NCBI GenBank assembly: GCA_008632985.1
Contig: QPGO01000015.1
Location: 683,998 to 747,997, forward strand
Origin: Psammoneis japonica
Taxonomy: Eukaryota
Length of the DNA: 64,000 nt
Direction: 5' to 3'
The number at the start of each line of letters is the position of its first letter. Positions within the stretch are counted from its first letter, which is position 1. The notes under the pieces are model-generated. The model was not told the DNA's origin. It saw only the letters and a list, made by a program, of their open reading frames with translations, and made no database searches. The position numbers and the translations under genes were made by a program. Of this stretch, positions 1,606 through 59,351 are shown piece by piece.

Positions 1606-2404
1606 CTCTAATTAATTTACGGTATGATCAACTGATGACCAAAGCAAATCCAACTTGATTTGCGGCCCCTCTTTCGAAAAGGCAACTGTACGTCAATTAG
1701 ACAACCCGTCCTGTTTTCATCTAGCTTACGCTTGAGAAGGAACCAGCCACCAGCTTGTGCTTCCTGTGCTGCTTTCCTTCTTGCTTTCTCTCAAAACCAT
1801 TGATGTGGTGTGGTCTGTCGTGTGGCTGACACATCTGACGCCATGAGAAAGCGGAGTCAGTCCCGCTCCGCCACGCGTCAAAACGTCTGAGTGGATAAAT
1901 TCAGTCTTGTCTCATGTTGATTTCTACGCAGAAAACTCGACCATCTTTGATGGGATTCAAACCGCCACCAGCAGCCGCCGTGTTATTTCGCGCCGTTCGC
2001 TTGGTTGGACCAACTCGCCATGAGAGGAAAGAGTTCTCCACTGTCTATCCTGTAGCTAGAAGGGCTAAATCGACATGAAATCAAAGCTAGAGAGTCTGAC
2101 AATGAATGCAAAAGGACGAGCTGCATGGTGCATCTACGACTTGGAGAGCAACAGCAAACAAAGCACCGAATTGTATTCACGCACAATTCTGTGGTATGTT
2201 CTCCGCTTCTCAGACGGAAAATGATGCGCCCTTTAGCATCTTGCTGTTCTACTTGTAACATATTTTGTACTCTTCTACGTCATGCGAGTCAGTGCATCCG
2301 ATAATATCGACAGTTGACGCCTATAACATCCACACTGGTGACAATATACTTTACACAGTAATCCAACAGAGGATCGAGTGTATGCAAATCACTGGAATGA
2401 CCCT

Positions 2405-28026: not shown

Positions 28027-28746
28027 TTATATTGCGTCATAGTATGATGATCGTGGTGACCATTCCGACGGAGGAGGCCCCAGAGTGTTTTCGGGGAAAC
28101 TTTTTACAGGAATGGGGTTGTATATTGCTCCATGCACTTCGTTTTTGCTTGCTGTGTCATTTTCACAGTGACCGGTCTCGCCCACACACGAAGCACTTAA
28201 AGAGTTGTCAAGGAATGCCTCAGCAAGAATGCTTGCCGTGTTCTCGTCCAGAAAAAGCCCCGACTCTCTGCGTCCCGAAGAGACGGCTTTTCGTTTCATA
28301 TGGACCTCTTGTAGTGCTGGACAATCTGCTTCTTTCCTTTTCTTCCTGCTCTGTGCTCTCTTTCGTGCTCCAATTGCGTCTCGCAAACAATGCCCCACTT
28401 TCTCCCTAGCGCGTACATCGCCAATGTCTATGTAACCTTTCTCGTCCCTTTTCACAAAACGACAAGAGGGTGGACCTTCTCGAATGTGTTCCACAATTGA
28501 AAGAACGAGCAGAGTTTTGTCCAACTTCGTTTCCGCTCGTTGATATTGATCTGCATTTGCGGCGATAATAGAGCGGAAGAGTTTGTTGCCATCATGATTG
28601 TGAAGTTGTTTTCCGCGACCGCAAATAATGTCAAAGCTCGATGGTACGTAGCCTTGTGGTAGCCGATGCTCTGGACGTGGCGCGCCAATCTTGTGGAACG
28701 CAAGAATCGGTACGGGTGCCAGTAGTTGTGTGTCGCTTTGGTTCAT
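28027..28746 (-). CDS. DUF6824-type domain protein (diatom-expanded family)
   Basis: DIICGRGK...H.GN..FR......Y...KLDK.....IV..IR....RFVK......GD..AREKVGH.LRD. Confidence 0.8.
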   Translation of the reverse strand: MNQSDTQLLAPVPILAFHKIGAPRPEHRLPQGYVPSSFDIICGRGKQLHNHDGNKLFRSIIAANADQYQRAETKLDKTLLVLSIVEHIREGPPSCRFVKRDEKGYIDIGDVRAREKVGHCLRDAIGARKRAQSRKKRKEADCPALQEVHMKRKAVSSGRRESGLFLDENTASILAEAFLDNSLSASCVGETGHCENDTASKNEVHGAIYNPIPVKSFPENTLGPPPSEWSPRSSYYDAI

Positions 28747-29252
28747 TCGCCGCTTCAAGTTGCTGTGAACTATTGTTTTTGTAAGTGGACGCTGCGTGTC
28801 TGCTACAATATTTTTTCAATTTGTGAGAGCGCATTGCAACTCAAACTGCCTGTGCAATCCGAGCTGACGCAAGATTCGTGGTCGCGCGGAAACACCGAGC
28901 TCGCCACGCTCACATGCTGATAGAGCTTTTGGTCGCATTTTAATCGACAGTTCACTCTGTTCTGTCAGCACGGGGTTCGTGCAATGAGCGAGTCCCAGGC
29001 TCGACTTCTCTCTCTCTCTCTACCGGTACTCTAGGGCTCTACGTTAGAAAATGGAAAATTGATGAGTGATAGAAATACATGATGCTGACTGTACGGTATT
29101 TACGCGTTGTCCCATGCATGGTACCGTGCTGCGTTTAGGTTTGATGAAAACGTAGTTCAGTTTTTCCTCGCTTAAAACCTTTAACACTAATTGATTCTGG
29201 TTTAGGAGACACATTCCACAACCATCTGCAGAAATGTGCCAACGTTTAGCTG

Positions 29253-30074
29253 CTAGTGTCTGCTGTGCTGATCGTAGTGTTGTTTTGTTCTATCACCTGG
29301 CCTTTTTGTCTGTTTGAACGCTGACATCCCCGCAACCCCACCCCCAGGCTCATGAGTTCTTGCTGAGTTATCATTGGATCGCTTCCCAAGAAACGTATCA
29401 ACTACAAAATCGGTGAAGAATTCGTCGCAGAGAGTGTCATCGTCATCAGCGGTGTCATGAGATTTTAGTCGTTTTGGCTGTTTTTCAGAGTTATCCTCTT
29501 GTTTCGATTTATCATCTTTTCTTCTCCTTTTCTTGTATCCCGCGATCAAATCCCTTAGTGCATGCCCGACTTATCAGGTGTGAGCGACAACAGTGAGTAA
29601 GATTCATATCGAGTTGAGCGTGTCCCGCATTTGTTCTCAAGCAAAATTACTACCGTAGATGGCACTTTCCAGTGCCCGAGCAGCTCCCTTACCTTTCTCT
29701 TTTGCCAATGCATCTCCCAGCTCGTAGTACCTCCCAGTTATCTCGTCTTTTTTCACGAACCCTCCGCCTGGCGACAATGCACGAACTTCGTTGACGATTG
29801 ACGTCACAATGCTTGATTTCTCCATTTTCGTAGTCGCCGACAAATATCTTTCCGCGTTGGACGCAATTGTTTTACGGAATCGCTTATTGCCGATGTGGGC
29901 ATGACTCTCTTTGCCTCGTCCACATAGAACGTCGTTTTCGGAGGGAACAAAATCGTCCGCAAGCGGTATTTTTTTCTGTTGTCGTTCAGCTCGACCTGAC
30001 CCTTGAACATCATTTTCACTGCTGCGGGCAGCCGTCCTGTTATGATTGGGTATTTGCTTGTTCATTCTTTTCAT
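29253..30074 (-). CDS. DUF6824-type domain protein, tandem paralogue; 2 exons
   Basis: DVLCGRGKE...H.GNKRFR...GGGFVKK...LAKEK, then an intron (gtaagg...ataag) and VGHALRDLIAG. Confidence 0.8.
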
Positions 30075-30477
30075 TTCTTTGGCGGCTAGCCAAGGTAGTC
30101 TGCTTTACCATTCGTGTTCTTCGAGCCTGTGGAGGAGGGGGCGGCAAAAAGCGATGCTTCTCAAAAAACTGCGCCGCCAAGGAGTTTTTAGTCCCGAGTC
30201 TTGATGTCATTATGCTGATCAATCGTGTGAAATTTGTCAAAAATTTGTTCTTATGCTCATGCGCCACCAACTCATGCTTCAGTCGTGGTTTCTTTTCGAG
30301 ATGATGCTTCCGGAAGCGTTCTCATCTACATGTAAAAGACAATGCAACAACGGGAGTCTCAACCCACGCGGTTTCACCGCCAACGCATGTAACAGAGAGC
30401 ATTTCATGGCACTGGTGCAAACTCTCAAACCCCGAGAGAGCTTGTTTGGTTGCTTCTTGTTGCTTTTTGCGGCTGGG

Positions 30478-31520
30478 CCACCTGTCTTGGCTTCGAAAGA
30501 ACCACTCATTTGGACAAGGGTCAGAGTGGCATGTCTGTCTCAGGTGCTGCTTTTTCACTCTGATTGATGATGCAATCACTTTGTTCTTTCAAAAAAGGAA
30601 CAAAGAGCAGAGCAAGAGGTGTGGTTGTTGTGACCAGGATGTGATGAGGCAGGCAAAACAGACCTGAAAAAGCTGTTTGTGTCACCCCACATGTCTTTGA
30701 AGCAGCCAGGATGAAAAGCCAGCTGAAGCTGCTTTGCTTCCACAGACTGCCAGCAGAACTCTGGCTTTGACAAAGATCACACCAGAGAGCCACTGCTGCC
30801 TTTGGCTGTGCTTGTCTGCTTGCAGCTGTTTTGACAGTCGGGGCCTGCCACCACGCAAGAGATGTGCCCAAGAGAGTTGACAACAATCGCAAGCTCTTTG
30901 TGGAAGAATTTGAGTTGAGAGGCAGAATTTGCCAAATTTTCTAGATCTGCCCTGAAGTGCTTCCACATGAGTTTGATGGTGTGTCACACACAGCATCATT
31001 GACAGAGATGACACAAGCGCAAGGGGTTTTGTGGGTCAGGGTGGCAGAGAAACAGAGTGGAAGAAACAAAAAGGGGGTGCAACAAGCCTGAGCAAAAAAC
31101 ATGAGAACAAAGTGCATTGGAAAGAGGAGCATCTTCCTGGCATGAAAAGTGATTTACAAGTGAAGCTGTCATGCTGTGCGTTGTGCAGAGCTGCAGCAGC
31201 AAGGAAGCTGCCGGCGCCAGCTTTGCAGATCTGTCAGTTTTTCAAGTCAACCACAACCAAACTCTGAGATGAGAAATGGGGGTCATCAGGGTGATGCCTC
31301 TGACAATGAGAGCTGCAAAGAACCCTGTTGGTTGCACAGCTGCCTGTGCCAAAACACAAAAAGCTGAAAAACAAGACAAGCTTGCCACCACCTGCCTTGT
31401 CTTCTCTTGTCAACACAAAGTGTGAATCTTTTGATGACAAAGTTTGCAAAACAGCAGGAGAGGAGAAGAAAGAAACAACAAAGAAAGCCAAGTCCTCCAA
31501 TGGCAAAACTGGTGAAGCAC
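30478..31520 (+). pseudogene. Decayed duplicate of FAN1 upstream region and 5' coding sequence (part 1)
   Basis: Aligns by eye to ~37760-38760. Examples: ctgtcttggcttcga, tttgtggaagaatt and ctgtcagtttttcaagtcaacc; translation KLKNKTSLPPPALSSLVNTKCESFD vs KLKNDTNLPPPAASSLVNKKCESLD. Confidence 0.9.
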
Positions 31521-33949
31521 AGCAGAAAGGAGAAGAAAGAAGCAGAGGAAAAAGCTGGGGTTGATGGTTTGACACTCACTGGCCAGGCATCTGCAACATG
31601 TTTTGGTGCTTGCCTTGTTAAGAATGAAACTTGTCAAGAAACAAAATTGTTGCATGTGGGCTGTCTCTGTCCACCAATCTTCGATTTTCTCACTTGTCAA
31701 TTGTGCATTCTCACAAACATTTTAATTTGATTGTGAAACTCACCAACAAACAAAATTGTCACAAACACGCCAACTCTGTCCAGTTGTTAATCATGCATTT
31801 GTGCAAACGTTAAGTCACAAATGATTTGACCATTTTTTGCCTGCGTGGCCCGATTTGCAGTCGGCTGACACACACATTTTTTCACACCACACCACACACC
31901 ACATTGATGCCAACAGCCGCAATGATGTGATTCATGCATTTCAACTCTTCTGATGACTCCCTTTGCTGGTGTCGACTCACCACAGTCACAAAAGGTGTCA
32001 CATGTCTTGGGTGTGTTGTGGGTGGGGGCTTTGTTGAGAAACATCGTTCTCTCATGTTGACAAGAAACACCAAAAAACATGGAATTGACATGACCCATGC
32101 TTTGATGTGTGTTCATTCAATGCATCTCCTCTCTTGTGCACCATTGCTGTCATCTCTTCATCATAGATGCAAAAAGTGTCCCCCATCTTGTTTGTGCTGT
32201 GTGCTTGATTTGTGGTGAGAAATGTTGGTCTCACACTTGTGTGGTCTCGCATCAGCCATTTGTGATTGTTGCTGACCCATGCTTTGATGTTTGTTTGCCC
32301 ATTTTGTTTCTTTGCTCACACTTCTTTTTTCTTGTCTCTTCTTTGTAGTTTCGAAAAGATTGTTTTGTCTTGTGTTTGCTTTTGGTGGGGTCTGTGAAGA
32401 GAAGGATCCATCATGCCAACTGAGGCATGCACCGAAATTTTCTCCTGGCTTTCCCAGCTGTTGTGGCAATGCACTTTTCAACCGAGGTGGTGGGCATGTT
32501 GGAAGCCAAGAACTGGGATCTCAAGCATGTGGAGAGTGCATTTTCTTTGTCAGGTGTCCACTGCCAATGTGGGGAGCACACCTGAGATGGCAGCATCAGT
32601 GATGACCATAAGATCCAGTGCAAGGCAATCAACAAGGCACTCAAGGTTCTGGGCCACAAAGCTTGGAACTGTGGGTGCAAGAGTGGGGAGCAATGCAATG
32701 AAATGACAACAACAATTGAAGTGGCTAAAGAAGCTTCTGGATGCTACAAATTGAAGTGCAAGACGATCATCAAGTGGTTTCAACACTGTCTTCAATTCGG
32801 AGAGACACCGGCCGAAGGAGTGTGGTGCATGATGCTGCCAATGAAAATGAGGAAGCAACAGCTTCAGATGACAGAAGAGTTTGTTTGGCATCACCATTCT
32901 GTTTCACAACTCAATTGGTGTCCAACAGATTGGATGAGTGGGAAAGATGTGTTCTCAGAAGTGAGGACAGTGCATGTGAGAAAGGCACTTGGTGGCACTG
33001 TGCCTGCTGCTCTGCTGGAACTGCTGCTTGGGACTGTGGTGAGGTGGTGTGTTTTCCGCCAAATTGACAACATTGACATTTGTTGGCAGAAACACCCCAT
33101 TCTCCACCCATGGAATGTCGAAGGTGCCAAACAGGGCTTGTGCCGCATGCGTGCTCCTGACACCATCTGATGCCGACGGTTGGCTCAATTGCTGTGACAA
33201 TGGATTGAGTCTGGATGTCAAGTTGGAAGATGTCTCACAAATGACATGGTTTGTCCTGCACAGGACCTGGTTTGCAATTGCCGTCCATCATTTTTGTCCA
33301 TGTGCTGTTGGATTTCCACTGAGCACTGCAGCTGGGTGTCGTGCAGCCTGAACCAGCTTGCTGCTCTCTGCTCCAGCTGGCTGACAGGTGCTTGCTGCAC
33401 AGAGTGAAAGGACAGTGGCTAAAACAGGTCAAGCAACATCTCAGAGCACATGCAGGGCTGCATGTGATGTCAGCCTGACCATTTTTGCAGATGGCGGCAA
33501 TGGGCATTTTGGGATTTGCCGCCTCAGCAAGAGCCCTGCATTGACTGATCGGTCCACATCATCCTGCTTCTTCTTGTTTGACATTTTCTTGACTCTCCAA
33601 AGACATTTTCAAAGGCATCTCCAGTGCTCTTCTTTCTCCATTTTGGCCTGAACCCTGACAATGACTTTGGCAAGCACACCCCCCGCCCAGCACTGCAGGA
33701 AGAGAAGCACTGGGAAGAGCAGGAAGAGTTGCACAGATTTAAACTTGCCAAGGCATTGTCTTTGCATCTCATGAAGCAAGCAACAGCACCACTGCTTGGA
33801 AAGCCATTGCCAGATGACAGAGACCAGAAAAATGTCTCATCTTCTTCCCTCTTGCCATTGCCGCAAATGAAGACAATGGCCAGAGTTTGTCGGCCACACA
33901 TCCTCAGTTCCCAAGGGGTTCACTCTGGTGGCAAGTTTGATGAGATGTC

Positions 33950-35900
33950 TTGCTGGTGTCTCCAGTTGTTGGAGCAACAAACTTGCTGGGGGGGGATGGT
34001 GCATGATGCACAGGCCAGTGCCACTTGAGAAACTAAAATGGAGCATGTGGTGGTGCTCCAGATCATCATCATCACCATCAATGCAAAATGGTTTGAGTTG
34101 CCGCCTGCATGACATGCACCCCAAATGCACTCAGCCTGCATTTGTTGAGTGGGTTCTTGGCCCAAGTGTGGTGTCTTTGCAATCTTGATTTGGGAAGCTG
34201 CAAGCCATGTCTTGGGCAGCAGCAGCAGCCCAAGGCATGATTCCTCCACACAAGAAGATGCCCAGCTTCACAAGGTGTGAAAGCACCGCGCCCACAGATG
34301 TGGCACAAAGAAGGAGGTTCACAGCTGTCTTGGGATGGCATTGGAGGACTCCAGTGGGTCCCAGAGGATGCAACAACAACAATGGTTGGGAAGCAAAGGC
34401 TTTTTCTTGTGTCCACACAGCCCTTTGTCTCTCTGACATGACCGGGCTTCTTGGCCCAGCCGCCACACCTGCAAAAACAAGAAAACCATCTGTGCGACAG
34501 TGCAAGTGCTCTGTTGTCTTGGGGTGGCCTTGGATGACTCAATCGGGTCCCAGAAAATGCAACAACAACAACGGATGGGAAGCAAAGGCCTTGTCTTGTG
34601 TTGGTGCGGCACCTTGTCTCCCTGGCATGACTGGGTTTGGCCCAGCAAAGAACCGTCCTGCTGCAAAAGAAAGACAAGGGAACTGTCTGTGTGACAGTGC
34701 AAGCACTCCATGTTGTCTTGGGACATTTGCAAGAGACTCCATTGGGTCCTCAAGGAGGCAACAACAACAGTGGTTGGGAAGGAAAAGCCTTGTCTGGTTG
34801 TGAGTTTGGTTGCATGTCTTGGTGTCTCTAACTGGAGCAACAGGCTTGCCAAGGGGTGCACGGCACATGAATGGTGCACAGGCCAAGGCCACTCAAGAAA
34901 CTGAAGTGGAGCATGCAGTGGTGGTGCCCCCATGTTCCAGCAAACATTTGCCAAATGCCAAGCCAGATCATCATCATCATTGTCAATGCACATTGGCTTG
35001 AGTTGCTGCCACCTGCATCATGACATGGACCCCAAAGAATGCACTCAGCCTGCATTTGTTGAGTGGGTTCTTGGCCCAACTGTGGTGTTTTTGCACTCTT
35101 GATTTTGGGAGCTGCAACAGCCCCTTGCATGATTCCTCCACACAAGAAGATGCCCAGCAGCACAAGATGTGGAGGCACCAGCCAACCTGCAGAGAAAAGG
35201 GAACCATCTGTGTGATGGTGTGAGCACTCCGTTGTTTCAGGATGGCTTTTGGCAACTCAACACCTGCAAGAAAGACAAGGGAGCCATCTGTGTGACAGTG
35301 CAAGCACTCTGTTGTCTCAGGTTGGCTTTTGGTGGCTCAACCTGCAAGAAAGACAAGGGAGCCATCTGTGTGACAGTGCAAGCACTCAGTTGTCTGGGGA
35401 TGGGCACCACAAGAGACTCTGTTGGGTCCAGGAGGAGGCAACAACAACGGCGGTTCTTGGGAAGGAAAAGCCTTGTCTTGGGCCAGTGCAGCCCCTTTTC
35501 TTTCTGATGTGATCGGCTTGCTTTGGTGACCAAGCCACCATCCCACCTGCAAAGGCAAGGGAGCTTTCTGCAGACAGCGCAAAAGTGCCCAGATGTCTTT
35601 TGCTGGCCTTGGGTGATTCCATTGTGTCCCAGGAGAGCCAACAACAACAACCTTGGTTGGGGAGCAAAGGCTTGTCTTGTGTCAATGTTGCCCCTTTTCT
35701 TTCTGACATGACTGGTGGCTTCTTTGGTCCAGCCAACACACCTGTGCAAAGATCATCATCGAGCCATCTGTGTGAAAGCACAAGTGACCAGTTGTCTTGG
35801 GATGGCTGTGGGAGGAGACTCCATTGGGTGCCAGGGCATGCAACAACAATCATGGGAATTTGGTGCCGGTGCATGAGAAATTCAAGATTTTTGGTTGCAA
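33950..35900. repeat. Degenerate tandem repeat array (~190-bp unit with a (CAA)n core) plus higher-order duplication
   Basis: The unit gttgtcttggg...gactccattgggtcc...caacaacaac..ggttgggaag.aaaggccttgtctt recurs at ~34325, 34513, 34712, 35390, 35600 and 35790. Block ~33955-34280 repeats at ~34820-35170 (shared gcactcagcctgcatttgttgagtgggttcttggcccaa). cctgcaagaaagacaagggagccatctgtgtgacagtgcaagcactc occurs twice, 79 bp apart. Confidence 0.85.
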
Positions 35901-36105
35901 TGGCTGGAGAGTGCTGCGGGCCCAAATTGACATGGTGCGCAGTGGCTTTGTCATTGTGGAGGCAGCAGCAGTGGTGGCAGTTGCTGGGTTTGGACCATTG
36001 GCTGGCACTGCAGCAGCTCCAGCAGCAGAGCCTTGGTTTCTCTGAGAGCTCCTGCTGTCGAGCTCTTGTGGCTGAGATTGAGCTTGAGATTTGCCAGCTC
36101 AACCT

Positions 36106-36222
36106 GCACAGCAAGACTGTGAAAATTTGCATCTTTACAAGAACACATTGACATGATGAAAACTGTGCAGCAAGACTGTGAAAATTTGCATCTCAACAAG
36201 AACACATCAACACAATGAAAGA
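36106..36222. repeat. 59-bp tandem duplication
   Basis: cagcaagactgtgaaaatttgcatct..acaagaacacat..aca..atgaaa appears twice in tandem. Confidence 0.85.
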
Positions 36223-36714
36223 TGAGAAATTGACCGACTGCCAACACACATGTGAAACCTCAATGACTGGATGATTCATCAAGTCATTTCAAATCATTCA
36301 AACCTTCAAAACTGAATGTGAGCATGGAATTTTAAAACAAAATTGTCACTCAAAAATGATGCCAACAGGAATCACCAGGCAGACAGGCTTGACATTGCTG
36401 CAAAAACACGAACCATCATTTCCTCACAAGACACAAAACACAAGGCTCGTCAAACATCGTGGCAGTGACATCAGAAGCAAGGGAAGGCAACAGAAGAGCA
36501 CCAGGGGGGAGGAGGACAGTGCAAAACACAAGGCAAGAGAGAGGCAGGAACTGAGTTGGTGAGTGCATGGAGCTTGGGCAACAATGCAAACAACTGATGC
36601 TTTTGCCAATCTTTCAACTCAGACATGATTTTGATGACATGCGAGGGGAGCCAGAAGGGAAGACGGCCCTGCAGGGGCCACACAAAGGTGGGCAGAAACA
36701 GCGTTTGCACCAAG

Positions 36715-36952
36715 CACATTCAAAACAATGCAAACACAATGCTCTCATCTGTTGCATGCTCTTTTCTCTTCTTTGCAGGCGATGCTTTGGCAAACTGATG
36801 CGAAACACGAAAGAGACATGGTCGCATGCAAAGGTGAGCAAAAGCTCGCTGTTTTTGTCAAGACAAGCCCACTCAAAAAACAAAACACATGCAATGCTCT
36901 GATCTGTTGCAAGCTCTTTTCTCTTCTTTGCAGGAAAAGCTTTGGCAATCTG
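36715..36952. repeat. ~80-bp direct repeat pair
   Basis: caatgctct.atctgttgca.gctcttttctcttctttgcagg...gctttggcaa at ~36737 and ~36892. Confidence 0.8.
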
Positions 36953-37585
36953 GCATGATGAGCAAAAGAGACAAGGTCACGACACAGAACGAACAACGGG
37001 ATTGTGCGTGGCAAGCAAGAGCGGATGCAAGGGGGTCAGCAAAATGAGCAAAGCATCATGCCATCACTGTGGCATGGGAGAACCGGCAGGAGACAGGAAC
37101 AAGCCAAGGAGGGAAGAGCAGGAAACAGGAAGCAAAAACACATTCACACTGCAGAAATGACAAAACACAGCTGGCACAATCACATTGCAAGGAACACACA
37201 GCCAATGCACGAGCATCTTGGTGCTGCAAATGAGTGTTGCAGTTGTCAGAAATGAGCAATGTTGCAAAGCAGTCACAATTGCACCCTTGTTAAGAAGTTT
37301 CATTGACAATTGTTTCCTGCTTGAAAGGTCGCATTAATTGTGAATGCAGCAAACTGAACAATTTCAGGGTCATTGTGGTCGCAATCTTGTGCAAAGATTG
37401 AATGAAGAATTAGAGTCATTTTCATCAAGTGTCAAGTCCTGCTTGGAATGTTGAAACAATTGTTAAAATTGGTTCACACATGATCAATGAGCACTTGTTG
37501 AGAACACAGGATTCTTGACAAGAGCAAAACGAGTTCTGAACAAGAGCCATGACATTTTCCAGACCAGCTTGCTTCTTTGGGCGAT

Positions 37586-37715
37586 CTTGCACGACAGAAT
37601 GTGGAGAACAGGGGCCAACAATGCCAGACTGTGTTGAAAGGCAGGAGGCAACAATCTGAGTGCTGTTCACCACATCTGCCAACTGCATCTGCCAGAGCAG
37701 CAAAAAATCTTGGTT
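37586..37715 (+). pseudogene. Decayed duplicate of FAN1 coding sequence (part 2)
   Basis: Matches ~38819-38937: ttgcacgacagaa..tggaga and caccacatctgccaactgcatctgccagagcagc vs ttgtacgacagaagatggaga and caccacatctgccaattgtatctgccagagcagc. Confidence 0.9.
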
Positions 37716-38284
37716 TGTTGGATGAAAACAAACAACATCTCAGTGCACTCTTTCTCTGGACCACTGTCTTGGCTTCGACCAAACCATTCATCAAGACAAT
37801 GACCCAAACAGCATCTCTCTGTCTCAGCTTCTGTGTTCTTCATTGCAGTGGAGTGCTCCTTCAAAATGATGAATGAAGAGGAGCAAGGTGATGAGGCAGG
37901 GCAGGCAGGCAGCCAGTGCAGATCTCAAGTGTCTGTCTGTCCCCCCATCATGACTTTGAAGCAGCCGGAATGAACAAGCCAGCCGAAGCTGTTGTGCCTG
38001 CTGCCGTGCATGGAGTCGACTGCATCCTGGATGAAAATCACAATTGGCCCTGCCACTCTACCATCTTAGAAAGCAGCTGCCAGCTGCCGCCTTTGGCTGC
38101 GTCTTATCTGCCACAGTTGTTGTGACGGTCACGAGCTATTTGTGGAAGAATTCGAGCTACGGCGGCATTTTTTCCATTTGCCCCCGGGAGTGCATTTTGG
38201 AATTTGCCCAAGATTTGCCCCCCAAAATCTTCGCTCACGGACACAAAATGTTTGCATCGACATACTGTAAATGACAAGGAATTT

Positions 38285-41200
38285 ATGGATCAACTGATGG
38301 AGGAAGGAAACAGAAACAACGACAAGGACGCAACAAGCTCGAATGAAAGACACGAGAACAAAGTACGTCCAAACGAGGGGCATCTTGCTGGCACTAGAAG
38401 TGATTTATCAAGGGACTCGTCATACCGTGCTTCCTACAACCGCAGTAGCGCGGAAACCGGTACCAGCTTCCTACCTGTCAGTTTTTCAAGTCAACCGCAA
38501 TCAAACTCTGAGGTACGAAACGGGGGTAGTCGGTTTGATTCTTCTGACGATGAGCCTGAGATCCTGTTGGTTGTGCAGCCGCCTACGCCGAAACGTCAGA
38601 AACTGAAAAATGACACAAACTTGCCGCCACCTGCCGCATCTTCTCTCGTCAATAAAAAGTGTGAATCTTTGGATAACGAAATTGGCGAAACAGTGGGGGA
38701 GGAGAAGAAAGAAACAGAGAAGAAAACAGACTCTCGGTCAGCAACCACTGATTCGCCTCAGTATAGTTGCCAAACATCCGCCTACGTGCAAAATCTTGCG
38801 GAGATTTGCTACACCATATTGTACGACAGAAGATGGAGAGTAGGCGCCAATAACGCCAGATTGTTGGAATGGGGGAGAGGCGACGATCTAAGCGCTGTGC
38901 ACCACATCTGCCAATTGTATCTGCCAGAGCAGCGAAAGAGCGAAGTCCAACAAAAGAGAGAACGATGCCGATGCCTGCTATGCCGATCAAACAAGGAGAA
39001 GCAGCCACTTCTCGACGAAATTCAGTCCCAAAGTAACGCACAGGGAAAAGGTTTACCAGTATCTATTGAGAATGTCAAGGGGACAGCTGGTGAACTTGAC
39101 GAAATGGCTGATGATGATGTTCGTGCACTCCACCTTTACTGCCGTCTCTTTTATCGGAAGGGTCCCTGGTTTCGCCTCGATGACTTATATGCACGCTATT
39201 ACGCTCCCAAGAATGAGAGAATTCGAGATGGCTCTACATTGTCATCTTCATCTGAAAGCAGCAATGATAGCGCGAATGACGCCACAGCATCGACGGAGTT
39301 CTTCCTGCCAAAGAAAGCAGGAAGAAAGAGCCCAAGTGTGATCGACGTTGAGATAGATGATGAAGTTTATGAGGCCGTCGCCTTGCTGTGTCGTGATGTT
39401 TCTCGCCTTCATTCTCTAGGGATGATTCGATCATTTTGCAGCGAAGAAGAGTGCGGAAAGACGGTTGGTGAGGTGTCGGGCGACGGAAAATGGGCTTTTT
39501 TCACTGCGGAAGAGCGTCGCACAATATTGTCCAAACTTGGCGGCGGGTCCAAAACGTCTGCTACTCACCAATCGAAGCGAACACCTTCAATGCCGGATAA
39601 AGGTGGAGGAAACATGAGCAGGAGGAACGAAAATTTAGTGTGGAGACAAATGCGTCGACAGCACTCCATTGTTGGACAAATCAGCAAGAACGAGGACCGT
39701 CGAGTCCTGTTGCCTGTGAGACGCCACGTTAACGAGTTATTGTATCAGAAGCTTGCCGCAAAAGCGGTTCTCTCTTCCAATTCTGATAACAAGAAATCTG
39801 CATCGATTATTCGGGAAAGAGTGACGGAAGCAAGAACTGCCATTCTTCGCCGCATTGAAGACGACCACATTGGGTTGGACATGTGTATTCGCCTCCGCGA
39901 GGCTCCCCTCCTTAGCTTACGTCGTTTCACTCGATTATATCTTTGCGCGTCACATGGTCCTGGCAATATGCGAGGCGATGGGTCAAATGGGTGGATGAGC
40001 TTGAAGGACCCGCTTGCCTTGCACAAAGATGTGCCAATGCAGAATTTTGTTTCCCCTCCCGGCTCTCATAGGTGGCATAGCATTTCATACCCTGCACTGA
40101 TGCATCGTTTCGGCATGAATACTTGCGCCTTTGCGAATTCCTTTCAGACGTTGCCGATGATAGATGGAAGTTCTCATCAATTCGGACAGGAAGAACACAT
40201 CTATCGGGGGTTACGAACTTCTGATATGGAACGTGTCTTCACCAACCATAGTGACTTTCTTATTTGGGAGCTGTGTGCTGAAATTCGAGCAAATGTCGAC
40301 TATCTCATCGAGGTGAATGATTTAACACATTATCATGCTAGGCGGCAAGCTCGCCAGGGAAATGAAGCATGCGGAGATGATAATAATTCCGGGGTTACGA
40401 ACGAGAGCTCACGCCCGCCTGAAATGTCACCTGCGAGTAACCTATCCATGTCATGCCATGTCGATTTTCTCGACCTACTGACAACAGCTGGAAGGCTAGA
40501 CATGCTGCGGAGCTTGATGGTATGGTGCGACCACGACGAACGCGTTTCGGATTTTGCGGACGTCATTTCTGAAGTTCAGAAAAAAGTAGAAAGCGACGTC
40601 TTGGCGCTTGGTGTCACGGTGAAAGTAGCAAACGAATCTCCTTCAGGGACCACGATTTTGCCTACTGCAGTTTCCGGTTTGTGCACCGAAGATGTTGCAA
40701 GCTGCTTCAAGAACGAATACGAAATGATTTTAGGGGTTGTTGCCGTGGTTTCTATGCATGTTCTGAGTTTTCGACATCGCCGTGTGTCACCGCTCGACGT
40801 TTCATTGAGAGTTGCCAGACCTTGGCTCCGACATTTGTGGTGGGACGGGAATCTGGCTTATGTGCTCTGGGATTGCATCCCAGTTCTGGAGAAGCGAGGA
40901 TACTACGGGCTGGCCTCTCGGGCTCTGGAAGTGCTGCTATTCGGCTCTTTCAAAGACCAACAAACAATAGAGGTTTCTGTCCCAGGCGAAGCTATCCGGC
41001 AAAATATTATGCCACCCTCAGCACCGTATGCCGCACTGCTGATATCCAGAAGAGCCCGTGGTAAAGCCTTTGAACGACTCGTGATTGACTACACGCATAT
41101 TCTTCGGACACGATCCAAAGAAGTGAAACCGAAACACGCGAAAGGTCGCAGAGCTGAGAAACAGACGCAGAAAAAGGTCACCCCGAATCATGTAGCTGCT

Positions 41201-42673
41201 GTGGTGTGCAATGAAATATTGAAGAGTGTAGTTTCTAAGGGTTCCATACCGTTCTCGGCCATAAGATCCCTTGCCAAAAGATTAAAAAGGCCGTTGGATG
41301 AAATTCTTGTAGGAGAGCGGTGTATGGAAGCACTCGACTTGGGCATCCGACTGGACAACCCGATAAGATGGGGCGAGAGGGAACTTTCGACGGACGAGAA
41401 AACCAAAACTAGAGGTTACGAAGATTGGACTCCCGTGACGGATTATGCCGTTGCCAATTCCATTGAGGGCGAGACGTCTGAATTGGGAAAACGATGCAGC
41501 TACGTGGGCTTCGAGGACGAAAACAGCGCTCCTGCTAATCCGGCTTCATTGAACGTTGAGGAGTTGGCGATGGAATTCTATAGAACAGGGAGACTCGGTC
41601 CGGTAGGGCCCAGTGAACCTCGAGGAGGTTGGGTGGGCTGGCACGACGAGGGAGGCCATTTAAGGGCTCTCTTTCGAATCCTTTGTTCCAGCAGTCTCTT
41701 AGGTGTAGACGGTGGTTGCAGCAACCAAACTATGAGCGCTATGATGGCCATAGAGAACGCAACGGTCTTCTTGACACCCTACCAAGGTGCCCCAGGCGAT
41801 TTACACGTGGGTCACGCAATCATGAATGGCACATCCAATACGGAAGACGGTCAAGATAATGGTGAAGTGTTTGTTCGAGGTTTCTATAGACGGCATCAAG
41901 CGAGAATCACCGAGTTTCTTTCCCTGTTGGAGAGGCTGGGAAAAGAAGAGCTTGTTGACCTCGTCTATGAATCTGTTGCAGAAAGGTCAAGGTTTCTAGG
42001 CACAAGAGCTGACAAAGATCCCGCGTTGCAGCGAGACTTCCAAATGATTCGCACTCTTTCAGTGCTCGCTGCCGGTTTTGGCGGCAAACTTCTGTCCGCA
42101 ATGTTTCGGTGCCTTTTATTTGATTACCGCCACTATAGTGGTGGATTGCCGGACTTGTTGCTTGTCCGGGCTCTATATGACGTGGAAGAGGCGCACAATG
42201 ACGAGGAAAGCGCTCTTTCAAACAGGCTTGTTGATTTAGGCGAGTGGGTTGGCGAAGGCTTTTTCAGAGAAAGACAGGAAGAAAAGGAGATGTCGAAAGT
42301 TGCGAGTTTTCTTGTTGACCAGGACGAGGAATTCTTGGGATGCAGCAAAGTGGGTGATTCTGGCGCAGGTCAATCATCCGGGCGATGGGGAGGTGGAAAA
42401 CGCCGACGTGCAATGCAACATCGGGACTCGTCGCAAGAGGATGAGTCTGGAAAATTTTCCACAAGTAATCTGCCCGAGAAGCTAAGTCTCCTCCATGGGA
42501 ATCGGAAAGTTGATGTGCAATGCATGTTTGTTGAAGTGAAGAGCTCCAACGACCGGTTGGATCCGAGGCAAGAAGATTGGTTAAACATTCTTGATAGATT
42601 TGGTAATGCAAGAGTTTGCAAGGTTGGCAGCGGAAAAAAGAAAACCCGAAAGTCTGCTATCAACAAGAAATAA
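38285..42673 (+). CDS. FAN1: Fanconi-associated nuclease 1-like (VRR-NUC domain)
   Basis: Intronless ORF with first in-frame ATG at 38285. Motifs LYCRLFYRKGPWFR, RGKAFERL.ID..H, VEELAMEFY, GW.GWHDEG, DYRHYSGGLPDL and FVEVKSSNDRLDPRQEDW. Confidence 0.92.
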   Translation: MDQLMEEGNRNNDKDATSSNERHENKVRPNEGHLAGTRSDLSRDSSYRASYNRSSAETGTSFLPVSFSSQPQSNSEVRNGGSRFDSSDDEPEILLVVQPPTPKRQKLKNDTNLPPPAASSLVNKKCESLDNEIGETVGEEKKETEKKTDSRSATTDSPQYSCQTSAYVQNLAEICYTILYDRRWRVGANNARLLEWGRGDDLSAVHHICQLYLPEQRKSEVQQKRERCRCLLCRSNKEKQPLLDEIQSQSNAQGKGLPVSIENVKGTAGELDEMADDDVRALHLYCRLFYRKGPWFRLDDLYARYYAPKNERIRDGSTLSSSSESSNDSANDATASTEFFLPKKAGRKSPSVIDVEIDDEVYEAVALLCRDVSRLHSLGMIRSFCSEEECGKTVGEVSGDGKWAFFTAEERRTILSKLGGGSKTSATHQSKRTPSMPDKGGGNMSRRNENLVWRQMRRQHSIVGQISKNEDRRVLLPVRRHVNELLYQKLAAKAVLSSNSDNKKSASIIRERVTEARTAILRRIEDDHIGLDMCIRLREAPLLSLRRFTRLYLCASHGPGNMRGDGSNGWMSLKDPLALHKDVPMQNFVSPPGSHRWHSISYPALMHRFGMNTCAFANSFQTLPMIDGSSHQFGQEEHIYRGLRTSDMERVFTNHSDFLIWELCAEIRANVDYLIEVNDLTHYHARRQARQGNEACGDDNNSGVTNESSRPPEMSPASNLSMSCHVDFLDLLTTAGRLDMLRSLMVWCDHDERVSDFADVISEVQKKVESDVLALGVTVKVANESPSGTTILPTAVSGLCTEDVASCFKNEYEMILGVVAVVSMHVLSFRHRRVSPLDVSLRVARPWLRHLWWDGNLAYVLWDCIPVLEKRGYYGLASRALEVLLFGSFKDQQTIEVSVPGEAIRQNIMPPSAPYAALLISRRARGKAFERLVIDYTHILRTRSKEVKPKHAKGRRAEKQTQKKVTPNHVAAVVCNEILKSVVSKGSIPFSAIRSLAKRLKRPLDEILVGERCMEALDLGIRLDNPIRWGERELSTDEKTKTRGYEDWTPVTDYAVANSIEGETSELGKRCSYVGFEDENSAPANPASLNVEELAMEFYRTGRLGPVGPSEPRGGWVGWHDEGGHLRALFRILCSSSLLGVDGGCSNQTMSAMMAIENATVFLTPYQGAPGDLHVGHAIMNGTSNTEDGQDNGEVFVRGFYRRHQARITEFLSLLERLGKEELVDLVYESVAERSRFLGTRADKDPALQRDFQMIRTLSVLAAGFGGKLLSAMFRCLLFDYRHYSGGLPDLLLVRALYDVEEAHNDEESALSNRLVDLGEWVGEGFFRERQEEKEMSKVASFLVDQDEEFLGCSKVGDSGAGQSSGRWGGGKRRRAMQHRDSSQEDESGKFSTSNLPEKLSLLHGNRKVDVQCMFVEVKSSNDRLDPRQEDWLNILDRFGNARVCKVGSGKKKTRKSAINKK

Positions 42674-51413: not shown

Positions 51414-51681
51414 GGTGGTGGAAATCTCTTGAAGAAGTTAATCGACAATTCTCTTCTTTTATTCTTTCCTTTGATGGTTGGGTTATCGTGTTCTTTTTTT
51501 GTTTTTGCTTCCTCTTTTTGGTTGGCGACGCGAAAAATGCGCGCGAAAAAGCTCACGTGCTTTGCAATACCAACAAAGCGCGTATAGATCGTAGTATGTA
51601 GAATTTGTATTGACTCTACGCCTAGCATGTAAAGCAGTGGTATAGACGCAACCTGTTTCGCGCTGCGCGGCTGAATTGCTG

Positions 51682-52048
51682 TGCACTATGCTCGAAGAAC
51701 GAGTGTAAACGAAAGTAGAATAGTGTACGAAAAGTGGAAATTATAAGATTAAATTTTGCTCTGTGATTTTTGGTTTCTCCGAACGAGTTCTCAATGGCCT
51801 AAAGCTTCTGTGCTGCTTCTACAGACAAAAGGCCTTTCGGAGAATACATTCGTGACAACAGATTGTCCGGACACGATTGCTGTTGACACGCAAGATGTCA
51901 ACATCGTCAATCGATCGTATTTGCAATTCTCGACATCCGATCAACTCTGTGTGATCGTTCTGTCCTTTGCACGCATCCACGACTGTGGTGCGATTGACAC
52001 ATGAATGGTGTGCAATCACAAACATGTGTGTGACAGTCGCACACTGCA
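51682..52048 (-). repeat. 3' LTR
   Basis: Ungapped match to 56040-56406; adjacent to the PPT. Confidence 0.93.
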
Positions 52049-55000: not shown

Positions 55001-56039
55001 CATCTCTTTTTTTTTGCGAGCGGCATTTTCGTCATCGCGACGCGACCGCGTGCGATTGCCATTTGAACGGCGCATTTTTGGGTCTCTTTCAGAGTCACCC
55101 TTGCACTCTTTTGCTAGTTCATTTTTAGAATGGCTTCAATCCGTGATGCAGGTATTCTTTTTTCAAAGACAAGACCTTGCATTCACTTTGGATTGTTCTG
55201 GTACCATGCAGGAGACCATTTTTGGAACCAAATTTGGAACCTTTTTTATTTTGGAACCAACTGCGCCATCAGAGCCTGAGTTGACATGTTTTTTCGTCAC
55301 GGACGTCATGAACGACCTTTAGATGACTCAAAACTTAATCAGCTCATCAAGGATGAGTTGCAATGGTTGATTGTTTTGGACAGTAGACTGATGCTGCCAT
55401 CCTTGCGGTGCGAGTGACAGCTGATAAATCAGCGCTCGGTTTCCCGCTAGATTCGACTTAGAATCCATCTGAGGGTCGCACAGACTCTCATCATTGACCT
55501 CTTGGGTCTAACAGAGGCTTTCTTGCTGTCAAGCAGCTCTGGTTTCTTCAGATCGTCTTGAAAATGACAATTCTGATTCTGAAGTGCAATTCTTGGAAAG
55601 ACATGAGACATGAGACTCTTGAGGTACTTTCCAACGGTTCCATCTTGCTCTTGGACTCAAGGCTCGTTGATTCGGTCTCCAAAAACTCTCCAACAGTCTC
55701 TCCTTGCATGCCAGACGCATTTCTCGGACCTGATCGACTCGGAACTTGCATTCTCTGCAACCATGACTTGGTGTAGATTTTTTTGATAATGCGGTGTACT
55801 TGAGAGCCCTTGATCCTTGGGTGCTTGGAACAGACCGCATTAAAGCGAATCCTCTTGTCTGGCAGACGAAAAACAGCGTCCCATCTTGAGGTGCTGCTCG
55901 GCTTGAGCTTCTTCCGCTCGGAAATCGATTCCAGCAGAACTGGTGCGATTCGTTCCTGTTTGTAGAAGAATTTGCAAAGGCACATTAGTTAAAATTTTCA
56001 TTTTCCGTGCTTTTTACCTTCTGTGGTGTGTATGCACAA

Positions 56040-56406
56040 TGCACTGTGCTCGAAGAACGAGTGCAAACGAAAGTAGAACAGTGTGCGAAAAGTGGAAATC
56101 ACAAGATTAAATTTTGCTCTGTGATTTTTGGTTTCTCCGAACGAGTTCTCAATGGCCCAAAGCTTCTGTACTGCTTCTACAGACAAAAGGCCTTTCGGAG
56201 AATATATTCGTGACAACAGATTGTCCGGATACGATTGCTGTTGACACGTAAGATGTCAACATCGTCAATCGATCGTATTTGCAATTCTCGACATCCGATC
56301 AACTCTGTGTGATCGTTCTGTCCTTTGTGCGCATCCACGACTGTGGTGCGATTGACATGTAAATAACATGTAATCACAAATGTGTGCACAACAGTCGCAT
56401 GCTGCA
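56040..56406 (-). repeat. 5' LTR
   Basis: Ungapped match to 51682-52048; upstream of the gag-like region on the minus strand. Confidence 0.93.
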
Positions 56407-56767
56407 GCTGTGACACCTTCGAACCTCCACAGCCAGAATTTTTTTACCACGACATAACCACGGCCGCTAGCGACATCCTCTTTTGATGTTGCCACTGTTC
56501 AACAAGAAGCTTGCTCTCGCCGACACCACTTGCGCTCTCAACAATGGAAACTAAGAGATTTTTGTCGGGTGAGTCACATCCTTTATCGTGCACTTTCCAC
56601 GGGCTCAGGAAGTGTCGGCACCAACCCATTTTTTTCTCTTCAGCTCTCATTGCGGCTCGACCCATCCCAACCTACCCGAAGACGTGTGTCTCCGTTACCG
56701 TCAACAGGAGCCCGTCACCACTGGCGCCTCCATCAGTTCTGGGCTTGCCATGCCCACTGTAGCGACC

Positions 56768-57510
56768 ATGACCATCGACAACCCACATCTTGACATTGTG
56801 CACCGGCCCGAGTTTGACATGATCGACGACAAACCCAAGAACAATTTGTCGCAACTTAGAGGAGAAACGGCTGCAATTGACGTGTCCATTCCTCTTTACA
56901 AGATCCTCCTCGACCCAACAGCGGCAAGGCAAGTGCATGCCTCACCAAAGAAGACACCTGTTGGTCAAGCAGCAAAACTTTTGGTGCAGCGTCACAACAG
57001 ACTTTACAAACAAAACGGCATTGAAGCCGTGCACGTTTTTGACGGCGCTCACAACCCGCTCAAATGGCGAACTGATGCAAAGCGTAGAGCCAGAAAAAGA
57101 CCTGTTGAAGACAGGACATTGTTTCTTCTTCAGTGGAACCGGCCAGAACAAGATAGACTCGAGGTGCTGAACAGGTGGAAAAGCATTGTTTGTCCAAGAG
57201 GTGACATCATGCTCCTGATCAAGAAAGCATTCGACCGAGAAAGAATCCCGTGTGTTCAAGCTGCCATTGAAGCTGAAGCGCAGTGCGTGGAGATGCAAAA
57301 TTCGGGGGTTGTCACACACATAGAATCTGAGGATGGTGACGTGCATGGGCACAACGGTGAGAAATGGATCACCAACTTAAACCCCCACAATGGCGACTGC
57401 TGCATGTTGGTGGCGGCTGATGTCGATGCTCATGAGATGCTGGAGGTGGCCGTTGGAAGGATTTCAAGTGTGCCACTCCTGCTTTTTGTGGTTGTGACTA
57501 CAATGTCAAG
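56768..57510 (+). pseudogene. Transposon-borne Exo1/FEN1/XPG-family 5' nuclease, truncated
   Basis: XPG-N motifs (LSQLRGETAAIDVS, GIEAVHVFDG...PLK..T..KRR) and XPG-I motifs (IPCVQAAIEAEAQC, IESEDGD), with FCGCDY in a shifted frame at ~57484-57501. Confidence 0.8.
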
Positions 57511-58750
57511 CCAGACAGTTTGCCTTTTTCAGAGACGATGGAAGGATGCGCAAATGCGACTGACAAGAAAAAGTTTCTCGCGGACATTGAAACAGGTGAT
57601 TGTCCATGAAGTCCAAATCGAGCATGGACATGCAAAGCCCCACTTTTCCAAGACGAGGCATCCACATCTGTGCTGTCCGTGGAAGCCAGCTGTTGCCTTC
57701 ACGATGCCATGTCGACCCCAAAGTTGCCACCCGACAATCCCGGTGCATTGTCATTGCACATGTCAGCACCTCTTCGACCGCCGTGAATCGCTCCTTTCCC
57801 ATGCCGTGTCTTTCCTCTGCATCAGGAAACCAAACCTTGGTGACACAGCAGATGGTTTCCTTGAATGTGCCTGGTCCCCAAAGATGCTTCGCCATTCTGT
57901 CATGATCCTCACGCCACTTGCCGCTCGTCAGATTCTCCCTGCTCAGTCCACCCATCGCTTCAATCTCATCCTCCCGCTCCAAGCACACTTTCAACTTTTG
58001 AGCCTTGTCTGCCAGCTCTGACGATGCTTTGTCGGCTCTTTTCAATGCAATTTGAAGCAACTCATTCACACGCTCAAGCTCCACTCGCAACCTGACATTC
58101 TCCTTTCCCGCTCCGTCTGGATCAAATGCGGCGTTCCTCTGTGCTGCTGCAACTTTTCGGACTGTTGGCGGTGGACGAGGCAAGTCTCTTGCATGGTCTT
58201 CCTCATCAAGATAAACTCCAATGGGGTCCAATGATGCGCGGGCTGACTTAGCATCTCGCTGACAATCTTTCTTGGTGCAGTTCGGCGCCGGGCAGTGTGA
58301 CATTTTTCCGTTGCTCCGATCTCTTGCGTCACTTTTGTGAAAGCACAGCAATTCTCACGTCTCACAGTCCACATTTTCCAAAGGACCTTTGTTGTCCTCT
58401 TTTAAAACAGCAGGATGGAAATGATTGAATCCGATGTGTTCATAATTGCCAGCAGGTTCCGGTGGCACACAAGAGTTCCCAACAAGATGCCGATGCGCCA
58501 CGACTCTCATGTTGTTGTCACTTGCATTGCCGCTTCCATGTGGCCTTCTTTTGCTGGCGCAGGGAAGGTGGCAGCAACCACACCTTTTTTTGTCACCAGC
58601 ATCAATGAAGTCCTTTGTGCTCTGCTTGCACTCTTCCTTGTCACGGCAGATGCAAGGGCAGAGGGTAGAGTCGCACACCTTTGTGATGGTTTCTCTGGGG
58701 ATCTCGCTTGCGTTTGGGAGACGCCGCCGCAGATGATTCTTCTGTCATTG
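57506..58750 (-). pseudogene. N-terminal part of an ISL2EU/Harbinger-like transposase (Cys/His zinc-binding region, coiled coil, HTH); catalytic core absent
   Basis: Starts just inside the right TIR. Cys-rich segment ending HFH (THAP-like), coiled coil, then FTAVEEVLTCAMTMHRD...LG..W...W.PRL resembling the HTH that precedes DDE_Tnp_4 domains. Frameshifted. Confidence 0.55.
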
Positions 58751-59351
58751 TTGCAGCAGGCAGAGGAACGCCAAGTCTGACAGATGCACCAGTGGTGACG
58801 GGCTCCTTTTGACGGTAATGGAGACACACGTCTTCGAGTGGGGTGTGATGGGTTGAGCTGCAGCGGGAGCTGAAGAGGAAAAAATGGGTCAGTGCCGATG
58901 ATTCCTGAGCCCGTGGAAAGCGCACGATAAAGGACACGACTCACCCAAAATGAGGCTCTTAGCATCTGTTGTTAAGAGCGCAAGTGGTGTCGGGGAGAGT
59001 AACCTTCTTGTTGCACAGTGGTGATGTCAACAGAGGAGGTCGTCAGAGGCCGTGGTTTTGTCGTGGTAAAAAAATTCTGGCTCCGGAGGGTCACAGCAAT
59101 TCAGCGTCCGGGTTCCGTCTATGGAGAGACGATCAAAGGAATTGGGAATTTCACCTCTCCGCTCTTGTTTGAAACATGCATCCGTCCCGAGCGAGCTGAA
59201 ACTCCAAACTCCATCCGACAATACAGCATAGCCGACAAAACAAGAATCCAGGGAAAAAATGAGAGCCACCCAAAACATTTGCGAGTGAATCAGTTTGCTC
59301 CAGTTTCTACTCTCTAGAGTAGAGAGTAGAGCCCTACTACTAGAGAAGACC

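Follow-up and report, generated by a model that had tools for sequence, protein, structure and literature searches.

A 64,000-bp stretch of nuclear DNA from the diatom Psammoneis japonica (GenBank assembly GCA_008632985.1, contig QPGO01000015.1, positions 683,998 to 747,997 of the forward strand; here called the window and numbered from its first base) carries an intact FAN1-like nuclease gene together with a decayed partial duplicate of it, as well as a younger direct repeat elsewhere. In the repeat-containing tracts of this window two separable transition processes have acted, each specific for its sequence context and symmetric with respect to the strands, one on TpA and the other on CpG, and both converge on TpG and CpA. 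The pattern is on balance, and with some reserve, taken to be the result of a fast, repeat-associated hypermutation of TpA to TpG or CpA (A:T to G:C), accompanied by a slower decay of CpG, which would be triggered by repeats and would follow a logic similar to that of the repeat-induced point mutation (RIP) of fungi.

The cleanest view of the TA-specific process is given by the younger repeat, a direct repeat of 368 bp with copy A at 51681..52048 and copy B at 56039..56406, both on the forward strand. The two copies differ at 30 positions, all of which are transitions, with no transversions. As many as 28 of the mismatches are located in the 52 TA-type bases and only 2 in the other 316 (odds ratio 183, p = 2e-25), while none of the 21 CpGs differs between the copies. 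Classification of the pyrimidine-purine sites yielded 5 sites with TA in both copies, 14 with TA in one copy and TG or CA in the other, 7 with TG opposite CA, 21 with CG in both and none at which a CG had been hit in a single copy. These classes fit independent hits on approximately 33 ancestral TAs with a probability of around 0.6 per copy, by which 15.7 single and 12.3 double hits are predicted; the fit assumes equal TG and CA outcomes and includes 7 inferred double hits in the same direction that leave no visible difference. A reading in the reverse direction, in which C-to-T changes created TAs from CG ancestors, needs 7 CpGs that were hit twice, 21 that were never hit and none that was hit once, and is not credible. 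In this pair the TA process outpaces other substitutions by two orders of magnitude or more, affects both copies and both strands, and precedes any loss of CpG. The 300 bp upstream of copy A hold 15 TAs, which is normal, and the change therefore starts at the edge of the repeat. In 10 repeat-pair alignments from the window, 37 doublets with TG in one copy and CA in the other were counted, as opposed to 1 with TA opposite CG; with independent sites the expectation is approximately 10 double transitions for the two kinds combined (one further alignment, of 50 % identity, was dropped).

The FAN1-like gene (38285..42673, forward strand) is an open reading frame (ORF) of 1462 aa, the product of which carries a VRR_NUC domain at its C-terminal end (Pfam, E = 5e-11). 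Its 84 homologues, which have identities of 32-42 % and cover up to 97 % of the query, are exclusively diatom entries or unnamed metagenome and assembly records. Several of these, from Phaeodactylum, Fragilariopsis, Seminavis and Cylindrotheca, are annotated at the source as "Fanconi-associated nuclease", and an alignment of 21 FAN1 homologue sequences has many invariant columns. With the C-terminal VRR_NUC domain and similarity over its full length to named FAN1 proteins, the product has the features of a FAN1 member. From the gene content the window was assigned to the nuclear DNA of a raphid pennate diatom. Codons 1-218 (38285-38940) are part of a duplicated unit. Using blastn, 37756-38725 was matched to 30473-31486 (64.7 % identity over 1038 columns, E = 4e-89) and 38816-38937 to 37584-37705 (80.5 % over 123 columns, E = 5e-25). 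The dead copy, which is in the same orientation, accordingly has two parts. Part a (30473..31520, delimited by blastn and alignment) matches the FAN1 upstream region and roughly the first 147 codons and contains 2 TAs and 8 CGs next to 222 TGs and CAs; part b (37584..37705) matches codons 178-218 and contains no TA and a single CG. Part b carries an indel and a stop, and in its translation conserved residues are replaced. An insert of 6.06 kb (31521..37583) lies between the two parts, and part b is separated by a filler of 50 bp from the intact unit, which starts at 37756. This arrangement is that of a unit, made up of the FAN1 upstream region and the first 218 codons, which was duplicated in tandem and the upstream copy of which was later split by an insertion. 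In the most likely course of events, a piece of 1.18 kb would have been duplicated, after which the truncated upstream copy would have received a member, of approximately 5.8 kb, of a multi-copy repeat family.

Substitutions between gene and dead copy were counted in three well-matched alignment blocks with 765 aligned positions in all. Only 1 of the 18 TAs of the gene is kept in the dead copy; 7 have become TG, 6 CA, 1 CG and 3 something else. CGs fared similarly, with 3 of 35 kept and CA (14), TG (13) or other dinucleotides (5) in place of the rest, so that TG or CA replaced 13 TAs and 27 CGs (27 of the 32 lost CGs) of the FAN1 gene. The other dinucleotides were kept in 411 of 698 cases (Fisher's exact test against these: p = 4e-6 for TA and 3e-9 for CG). 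When the counts were folded over the strands, A had undergone a transition in 15 of 36 cases in TpA and in 43 of 334 cases in other contexts (p = 7e-5), and C in 27 of 70 cases in CpG and 45 of 301 in other contexts (p = 3e-5). A preliminary description of the locus had quoted ten pairs of strings from gene and copy, all of which were found at homologous offsets (7239-7251 bp in the first blastn segment and 1232 bp in the second), and the change of both strands that it had reported, ccggtacc/ccggcgcc, is present at 38457/31211. It had also named a TA to TG/CA fraction no higher than that of other transitions as an outcome that would speak against its reading; the fractions given above show the opposite. 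The FAN1 pair is old and has diverged at all kinds of sites, with a total of 139 transitions and 70 transversions and identities of 67-78 %.

The direction of the changes could be read from the FAN1 proteins of other diatoms. As the best FAN1 relatives have only 40-42 % protein identity, polarisation was done at the protein level and in block 38816-38937 only, codons 178-218 of the gene, which is conserved across diatom FAN1. At 12 codons of this block the amino acids of gene and copy are different. The residue present in most of 44 other diatom FAN1 proteins is that of the gene at 7 of these and that of the copy at none, and summed over the 44 proteins 253 residues side with the gene and 13 with the copy. 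Among the polarised changes are V(GTA) to T(ACA), Y(TAT) to H(CAT), D(GAC) to N(AAC) and D(GAT) to N(AAT), while the TA site in the change of Y(TAC) to H(CAC) is uninformative on polarity. Because the diatom proteins side with the gene, the loss of TA and CG is derived in the copy. This bears out the proposal that the intact gene approximates the ancestral state, and a sharing of TG or CA between outgroup and copy, which had been named as counter-evidence, finds no support in the majority residues at any of the 12 codons. Polarised internal controls are rare, and the FAN1 duplicate provides one for the direction in which the changes ran.

The dead copy is embedded in an island of 7668 bp (30391..38058, with edges set from the lists of TA and CG positions) that is depleted in TA and CG and rich in TG and CA. 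Relative to the density in the background of the window (38 TA and 59 CG per kb), the island has 21 TAs where 291 are expected, 91 CGs instead of 450, and 1708 TGs and CAs instead of 1087. The 270 missing TAs and 359 missing CGs add up to 629, close to the surplus of 621 TGs and CAs, and TG (862) and CA (846) are balanced. Per kb, the observed-to-expected ratio (O/E) in the island is 0.00-0.07 for TA and 0.13-0.31 for CG, whereas it is 0.36-0.79 for TA and about 1 for CG in the rest of the window. On its left, the island begins at most 82 bp from where the duplicate starts, amid a stretch of 1.7 kb without an ORF of 150 aa or more (none at 28746-30400).

Sequencing reads from three runs of one sample in one study, used as DNA contigs, cover 29001-31729 and 37535-41000 each in one piece at a depth of around 60 and with 0 differences, which makes part a of the dead copy a single-copy sequence. 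Over these approximately 6.2 kb of single-copy sequence no heterozygosity was visible. Between 31.7 and 37.5 kb the summed word depth rises to 340-4190. Contig pieces with at least 85 % identity numbered 1284, a count that applies to the whole 12 kb of 29001-41000 and not to separate regions, the depth rising over the insert only. Among the pieces, 385 transitions and 109 transversions were found, and four adjacent pairs of TG opposite CA are present among the 40 rows of differences listed. The core of the insert (approximately 31730-37535) is a member of a dispersed multi-copy family, the copies of which were converted independently. The insert has 19 TAs, 75 CGs and 1365 TGs and CAs. It contains internal repeats of 59-200 bp, of which a tandem repeat search recognized only a 78-bp and a 59-bp array as tandem. 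When the longest stop-to-stop frames in the island, 17 in number, were searched against Pfam, no match below E = 0.01 was obtained. All repeat families found by a repeat search of the window are located in TA-poor DNA. Both strands of 30400-38050 are open over long distances, with 51 overlapping stop-to-stop frames of at least 90 aa and two ORFs starting with ATG, of 224 and 248 aa. The long frames arise because the near-absence of TA leaves TGA as the only stop, and TA-free tracts of this kind will yield false gene calls.

The few TAs that survived in the island are not a random sample. TTAA accounts for 9 of the 21, as compared to 62 of 1852 in the background (odds ratio 22, p = 2e-8), and CTAA/TTAG for another 5, while ATAT, ATAC/GTAT and GTAC have no survivors. 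The 3-mers ATA and GTA are reduced to 0.01-0.02 of background, and TGCA and CACA are enriched three-fold. In blocks 2 and 3 of the FAN1 alignment, A had changed to G in 11 of 15 TACs, 2 of 5 TAAs, 2 of 8 TATs and 0 of 8 TAGs, albeit that these numbers are small. Surviving CGs of the island are rarest in ACGT (0.19 of their background share) and most common in CCGG (2.0). For both steps there seems to be a preference for contexts in which the pyrimidine-purine dinucleotide is preceded by a purine and followed by a pyrimidine.

Whether only the dead copy was hit, as the preliminary description had stated, depends on the part of the gene considered. The statement holds for the coding part of FAN1 and fails for the initial 295 bp of this unit in its intact form, the distal FAN1 upstream region (37756..38050, forward strand), which lies inside the island and contains no TA, 5 CGs and 63 TGs and CAs. 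This part has 67 % identity to 30473-30735, with 4 doublets of TG opposite CA. The proximal upstream region that follows it (38051..38284, forward strand, 234 bp) has 7 TAs and 11 CGs, near the background densities, and marks a sharp right edge of the island. A comparison of synonymous sites within FAN1, which the same description had proposed, supported the claim that the coding copy is unscathed. In the 218 duplicated codons the ratio of synonymous-type TA sites to their transition products is 16:35, and in the other 1244 codons it is 89:191 (odds ratio 0.98, p = 1.0); for CG the ratios are 30:36 and 155:208 (odds ratio 1.12, p = 0.69). Gradual mutation of the live copy, site by site and filtered by selection, is excluded by these normal synonymous sites. 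If the process came in bursts over whole tracts, followed by selective loss of entire alleles that had been hit, synonymous sites would be left clean as well. The further suggestion that targeting follows chromatin state rather than homology was not established: selection on whole alleles is compatible with the data, and the 368-bp repeat pair was hit in both copies from the repeat edge onwards, as targeting by homology would predict. The dead FAN1 copy offers no clean test of homology against chromatin because it is split by a multi-copy repeat.

A second TA-poor domain, which extends from 51.7 to 59.25 kb and holds the 368-bp repeat and an inverted-repeat element, has a TA O/E of 0.0-0.4 and a CG O/E of 0.6-1.2 and represents an intermediate stage. 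Next to copy A of the direct repeat, TA-poor DNA continues over 52049-52750, a sequence that is not repeated within the window. It is followed by a patch with normal TA and CG (52751-53750) in which an RT_RNaseH remnant is present on the reverse strand at 53021-53527 (Pfam, E = 1e-5). The patch is either a later insertion or a piece of a transposon that escaped.

In the mechanism that would account for these observations, repeated DNA is recognized and marked, and an enzyme acting in the marked tract alters one base of TpA, either T or A, which is then copied as C or G, respectively. The TpA step acted on either strand about equally and on both repeat copies, starting at the repeat edge, and spared TTAA while it removed all TAs flanked by a 5' purine and a 3' pyrimidine. 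Oxidation of thymine by an enzyme of the TET/JBP type and deamination of adenine by a deaminase preferring a 5'-T are candidate chemistries. The slower CpG step led from CpG to TpG or CpA with about the strength expected for deamination of 5-methylcytosine (5mC) in silenced repeats. Functional FAN1 escaped, from around 235 bp upstream of its ATG onwards, presumably either by selection against alleles that were hit or through active chromatin that excludes the mark. The sensing of homology, the chemistry of the enzyme, methylation of the cytosines and a timing of the process within the life cycle are all presumed parts of this scheme. Two edges coincide with repeat ends, namely the left edge of the island and the start of copy A, and favour a recognition delimited by the repeat. 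That the live copy escaped, and that the island ends so sharply upstream of its ATG, speaks for a barrier formed by chromatin or for selection. Taken one step further, diatoms, or at least this lineage, may possess a mirror image of RIP in which duplicated DNA is recognized and its TpA enzymatically rewritten to TpG or CpA on both strands. This stronger claim is put forward tentatively and is held with less confidence than repeat-triggered hypermutation as such.

Several observations weigh against repeat-triggered hypermutation. All evidence comes from one window of 64 kb. Taken alone, the FAN1 pair gives an excess hazard of approximately 10-fold for TA and 7.6-fold for CG, which fits slow context-dependent decay, the figure for TA being a lower bound because TA is saturated in this pair. 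The coding part of intact FAN1 was spared, so that a strict process acting on both copies by homology needs selection to be invoked. Not all mobile DNA is affected, as the transposon remnant in 52751-53750, between the copies of the direct repeat, keeps normal TA. Lastly, no 500-bp window poor in TA and CG was found in 47 FAN1-bearing metagenome loci of other diatoms (362 kb) at thresholds of less than 0.12 for (TA+CG)/(TA+CG+TG+CA) and of less than 0.12 for the O/E of TA, metagenome contigs being a source that rarely holds repeats. The process may be restricted to a lineage, or repeats of this type may fail to assemble. Of the 46 transitions in short tandem repeats of these loci, 15 are at TA-type sites, and no clear signal emerges from them.

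Targeting triggered by repeats was ranked first and spreading of chromatin alone second, and one window cannot separate the two. According to the latter explanation, which is possible though rather unlikely, the insert nucleates silent, methylated chromatin that spreads over approximately 0.5-1.1 kb into the flanks of the insert, the transitions at TpA and CpG are by-products of its marks, homology between the two FAN1 copies is irrelevant and a barrier is formed by the active promoter of FAN1. A coding copy that is untouched even at synonymous sites, an island that is centred on a multi-copy repeat, ends sharply upstream of the ATG and runs 295 bp into the intact unit regardless of copy identity, and TA-poor DNA at 52049-52750 that is not part of a repeat in the window are all as this explanation would have it. 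It does not explain why the left edge of the island lies so near the start of the duplicate, where there is neither a gene nor an evident barrier, why the spread was not stopped by the duplicated FAN1 promoter region that the dead copy contains, why depletion at copy A starts at the repeat edge with its 15 TAs in the outer 300 bp, or how a patch of normal TA came to lie within the second TA-poor domain. Ordinary neutral decay, by which old unconstrained DNA would have followed a species-wide mutation spectrum favouring the loss of TA and CG, is improbable. Although the 70 transversions of the FAN1 pair, its approximately 13 % of transitions outside TA and CG, and the under-representation of TA throughout the window are what such decay would leave behind, the young pair, with 28 changes of the TA type against 2 others and 0 of 21 CpGs changed, requires an excess of the TA rate of two orders of magnitude. 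At such a rate throughout the genome the synonymous TAs of FAN1 would have been stripped, yet they are normal, and other stretches of the window without long ORFs keep a CG O/E of about 1 and a TA O/E of 0.4-0.96.

An origin at the level of RNA, in which an ADAR-like enzyme would have hyperedited transcripts from A to I and the edited copies would then have been reverse-transcribed and inserted, is considered more improbable still. Adenosine deaminases (ADAR, TadA) prefer a 5'-U or 5'-T neighbour, in agreement with the A-to-G changes after T in the FAN1 pair, and a reverse-transcriptase remnant is present nearby. The dead copy is, however, a genomic duplicate in tandem, contains upstream sequence that is presumably non-transcribed promoter DNA, and has no features of a retrocopy. 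Editing of transcripts predicts strand-pure clusters, whereas the two polarities are equally frequent both in the island and among the lost TAs (7 TG and 6 CA), and in the direct repeat each copy has both of them. Along the dead copy the TG and CA products are mixed; a hand count of their strand runs gave 12, which does not differ significantly from the approximately 15 expected. A search of 29-40 kb for inverted repeats of at least 30 nt gave none. Least probable of all is that the changes are C-to-T mutations of the classical RIP type, with the TAs being derived, or that the TG and CA calls are errors of assembly or sequencing at modified bases. Differences between TA and TG or CA can be read in either direction as long as they are not polarised, and some base callers can be disturbed by modified bases. 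The diatom FAN1 outgroup makes TA and CG ancestral, however, doublets of TG opposite CA without singly hit CGs are impossible by C-to-T changes alone, and the island has lost TA without any gain. An artefact is further contradicted by the agreement with the read contigs of 29001-31729 and 37535-41000, although these may stem from the sample of the assembly itself, and by the indels and transversions that also distinguish the copies.

Repeat-triggered hypermutation as preferred here resembles RIP of Neurospora and other ascomycetes in that transitions in one dinucleotide context riddle the repeats, both copies can be hit, the change starts at the repeat edge and dead copies result. In RIP, sequence between or beside the repeats is also affected, as is DNA next to repeats in the window. 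RIP converts C:G to T:A at CpA and thereby creates TpA. Here, A:T is changed to G:C at TpA and TA is destroyed, as follows from the outgroup polarity, the logic of the doublets and the loss of TA from the island; stop codons TAA and TAG are erased instead of created, the host is a diatom, and a functional duplicate escaped. As to the rule that both copies, and duplicated DNA only, are affected, the observations are divided: both copies of the 368-bp pair were hit, with the change starting at the repeat edge, and the island begins close to the start of the FAN1 duplicate, but in intact FAN1 only the first 295 bp were affected. By its chemistry the process is not RIP, although it is RIP-like in its logic. 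No report of RIP in diatoms was found in the literature searched. Diatom transposons are described as CpG-methylated by way of DNMT5a, and many diatoms as carrying a RID-related DNMT4 with an unknown function (PMC9998398).

The CpG step is in line with the decay of 5mC at CpG as it occurs in vertebrates, plants and diatom transposons: CG was changed to TG (13) or CA (14) among the 35 CGs, that is, on both strands, these products account for most of the lost CGs, the hazard ratio of 7.6 is of the approximately ten-fold order associated with such decay, and only repeat DNA is affected. Deamination of 5mC is the probable cause of this step. It leaves the loss of TA unexplained, which is faster and separable (28 TA-type changes as opposed to 0 of 21 CpGs in the young pair). 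With respect to the TpA step, oxidised T in the form of 5-formyluracil is known to miscode as C, and modification of T in TA, if followed by such miscoding, would give CA and TG. In dinoflagellates, a TET/JBP enzyme makes 5-hydroxymethyluracil, which is enriched in repeats, functions in transposon silencing and takes the place of T most readily in the contexts TA and TC (PMC11572971). The likeness lies in a TA-preferring modification of T at repeats; the lineage is a different one, and the sections consulted report no mutational outcome.

Deaminases of the ADAR, TadA and ADAT types and APOBEC3 also inactivate mobile elements by context-dependent transitions, and an A-to-G change with a 5'-U or 5'-T neighbour, as in ADAR-type deamination, was indeed observed (15/36 vs 43/334). 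Their substrates are RNA or a single strand of cDNA, and the clusters that they leave are strand-pure, whereas here both strands are affected equally and upstream DNA, presumed untranscribed, is included. We know of no case of natural adenine deamination of chromosomal DNA. Eukaryotic N6-methyladenine (6mA) likewise is a symmetric mark on a palindromic dinucleotide of A and T, the difference being that it is placed on ApT instead of TpA. The 6mA of the AMT1 pathway is found at ApT in active genes after the transcription start site, and the part of the study consulted mentions neither a depletion of ApT nor an obvious mutagenic effect (bioRxiv 10.1101/2024.10.28.620566). Deamination of 6mA was set aside as the cause because 6mA occurs at ApT on active genes without a compositional effect.

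No description of TpA to TpG/CpA mutation of repeats, in diatoms or elsewhere, was found in the main texts of the literature searched, and the diatom transposon papers that were checked mention neither dinucleotides nor deamination nor point mutation. To our knowledge, repeat-directed point mutation as a genome defence is confined to fungi, where it is always C-to-T. A TpA-specific A:T to G:C counterpart in a diatom would mean that the strategy evolved with a different chemistry in a major algal lineage, and would suggest the existence of an enzyme acting on A or T within chromosomal DNA; a naturally occurring DNA editor directed at adenine or thymine would be of interest for base editing. Mirror-image RIP, if true, would be the first natural A:T to G:C hypermutation system for chromosomal DNA, erasing tyrosine codons and TAA and TAG stops and raising the GC content, after which CpG decay would follow. 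Dating of long terminal repeats and other repeats by their divergence would be badly biased in genomes of this type.

A search of the whole window against Rfam gave 0 matches. The inverted-repeat element in the second TA-poor domain (56421..59092) is bounded by arms of 339 bp that are 81 % complementary and differ by 8 doublets of TG opposite CA. Its O/E is 0.0-0.3 for TA and 0.57-0.92 for CG. It contains a decayed frame for an XPG-type nuclease (XPG_N, E = 4e-8; XPG_I, E = 1e-10), and may be a gene duplicate that has decayed or else a mobile element of an unfamiliar type. After approximately residue 290 the XPG frame turns into a sequence rich in His and Cys. The gene neighbouring the FAN1-like ORF encodes a product with a DUF6824 domain.

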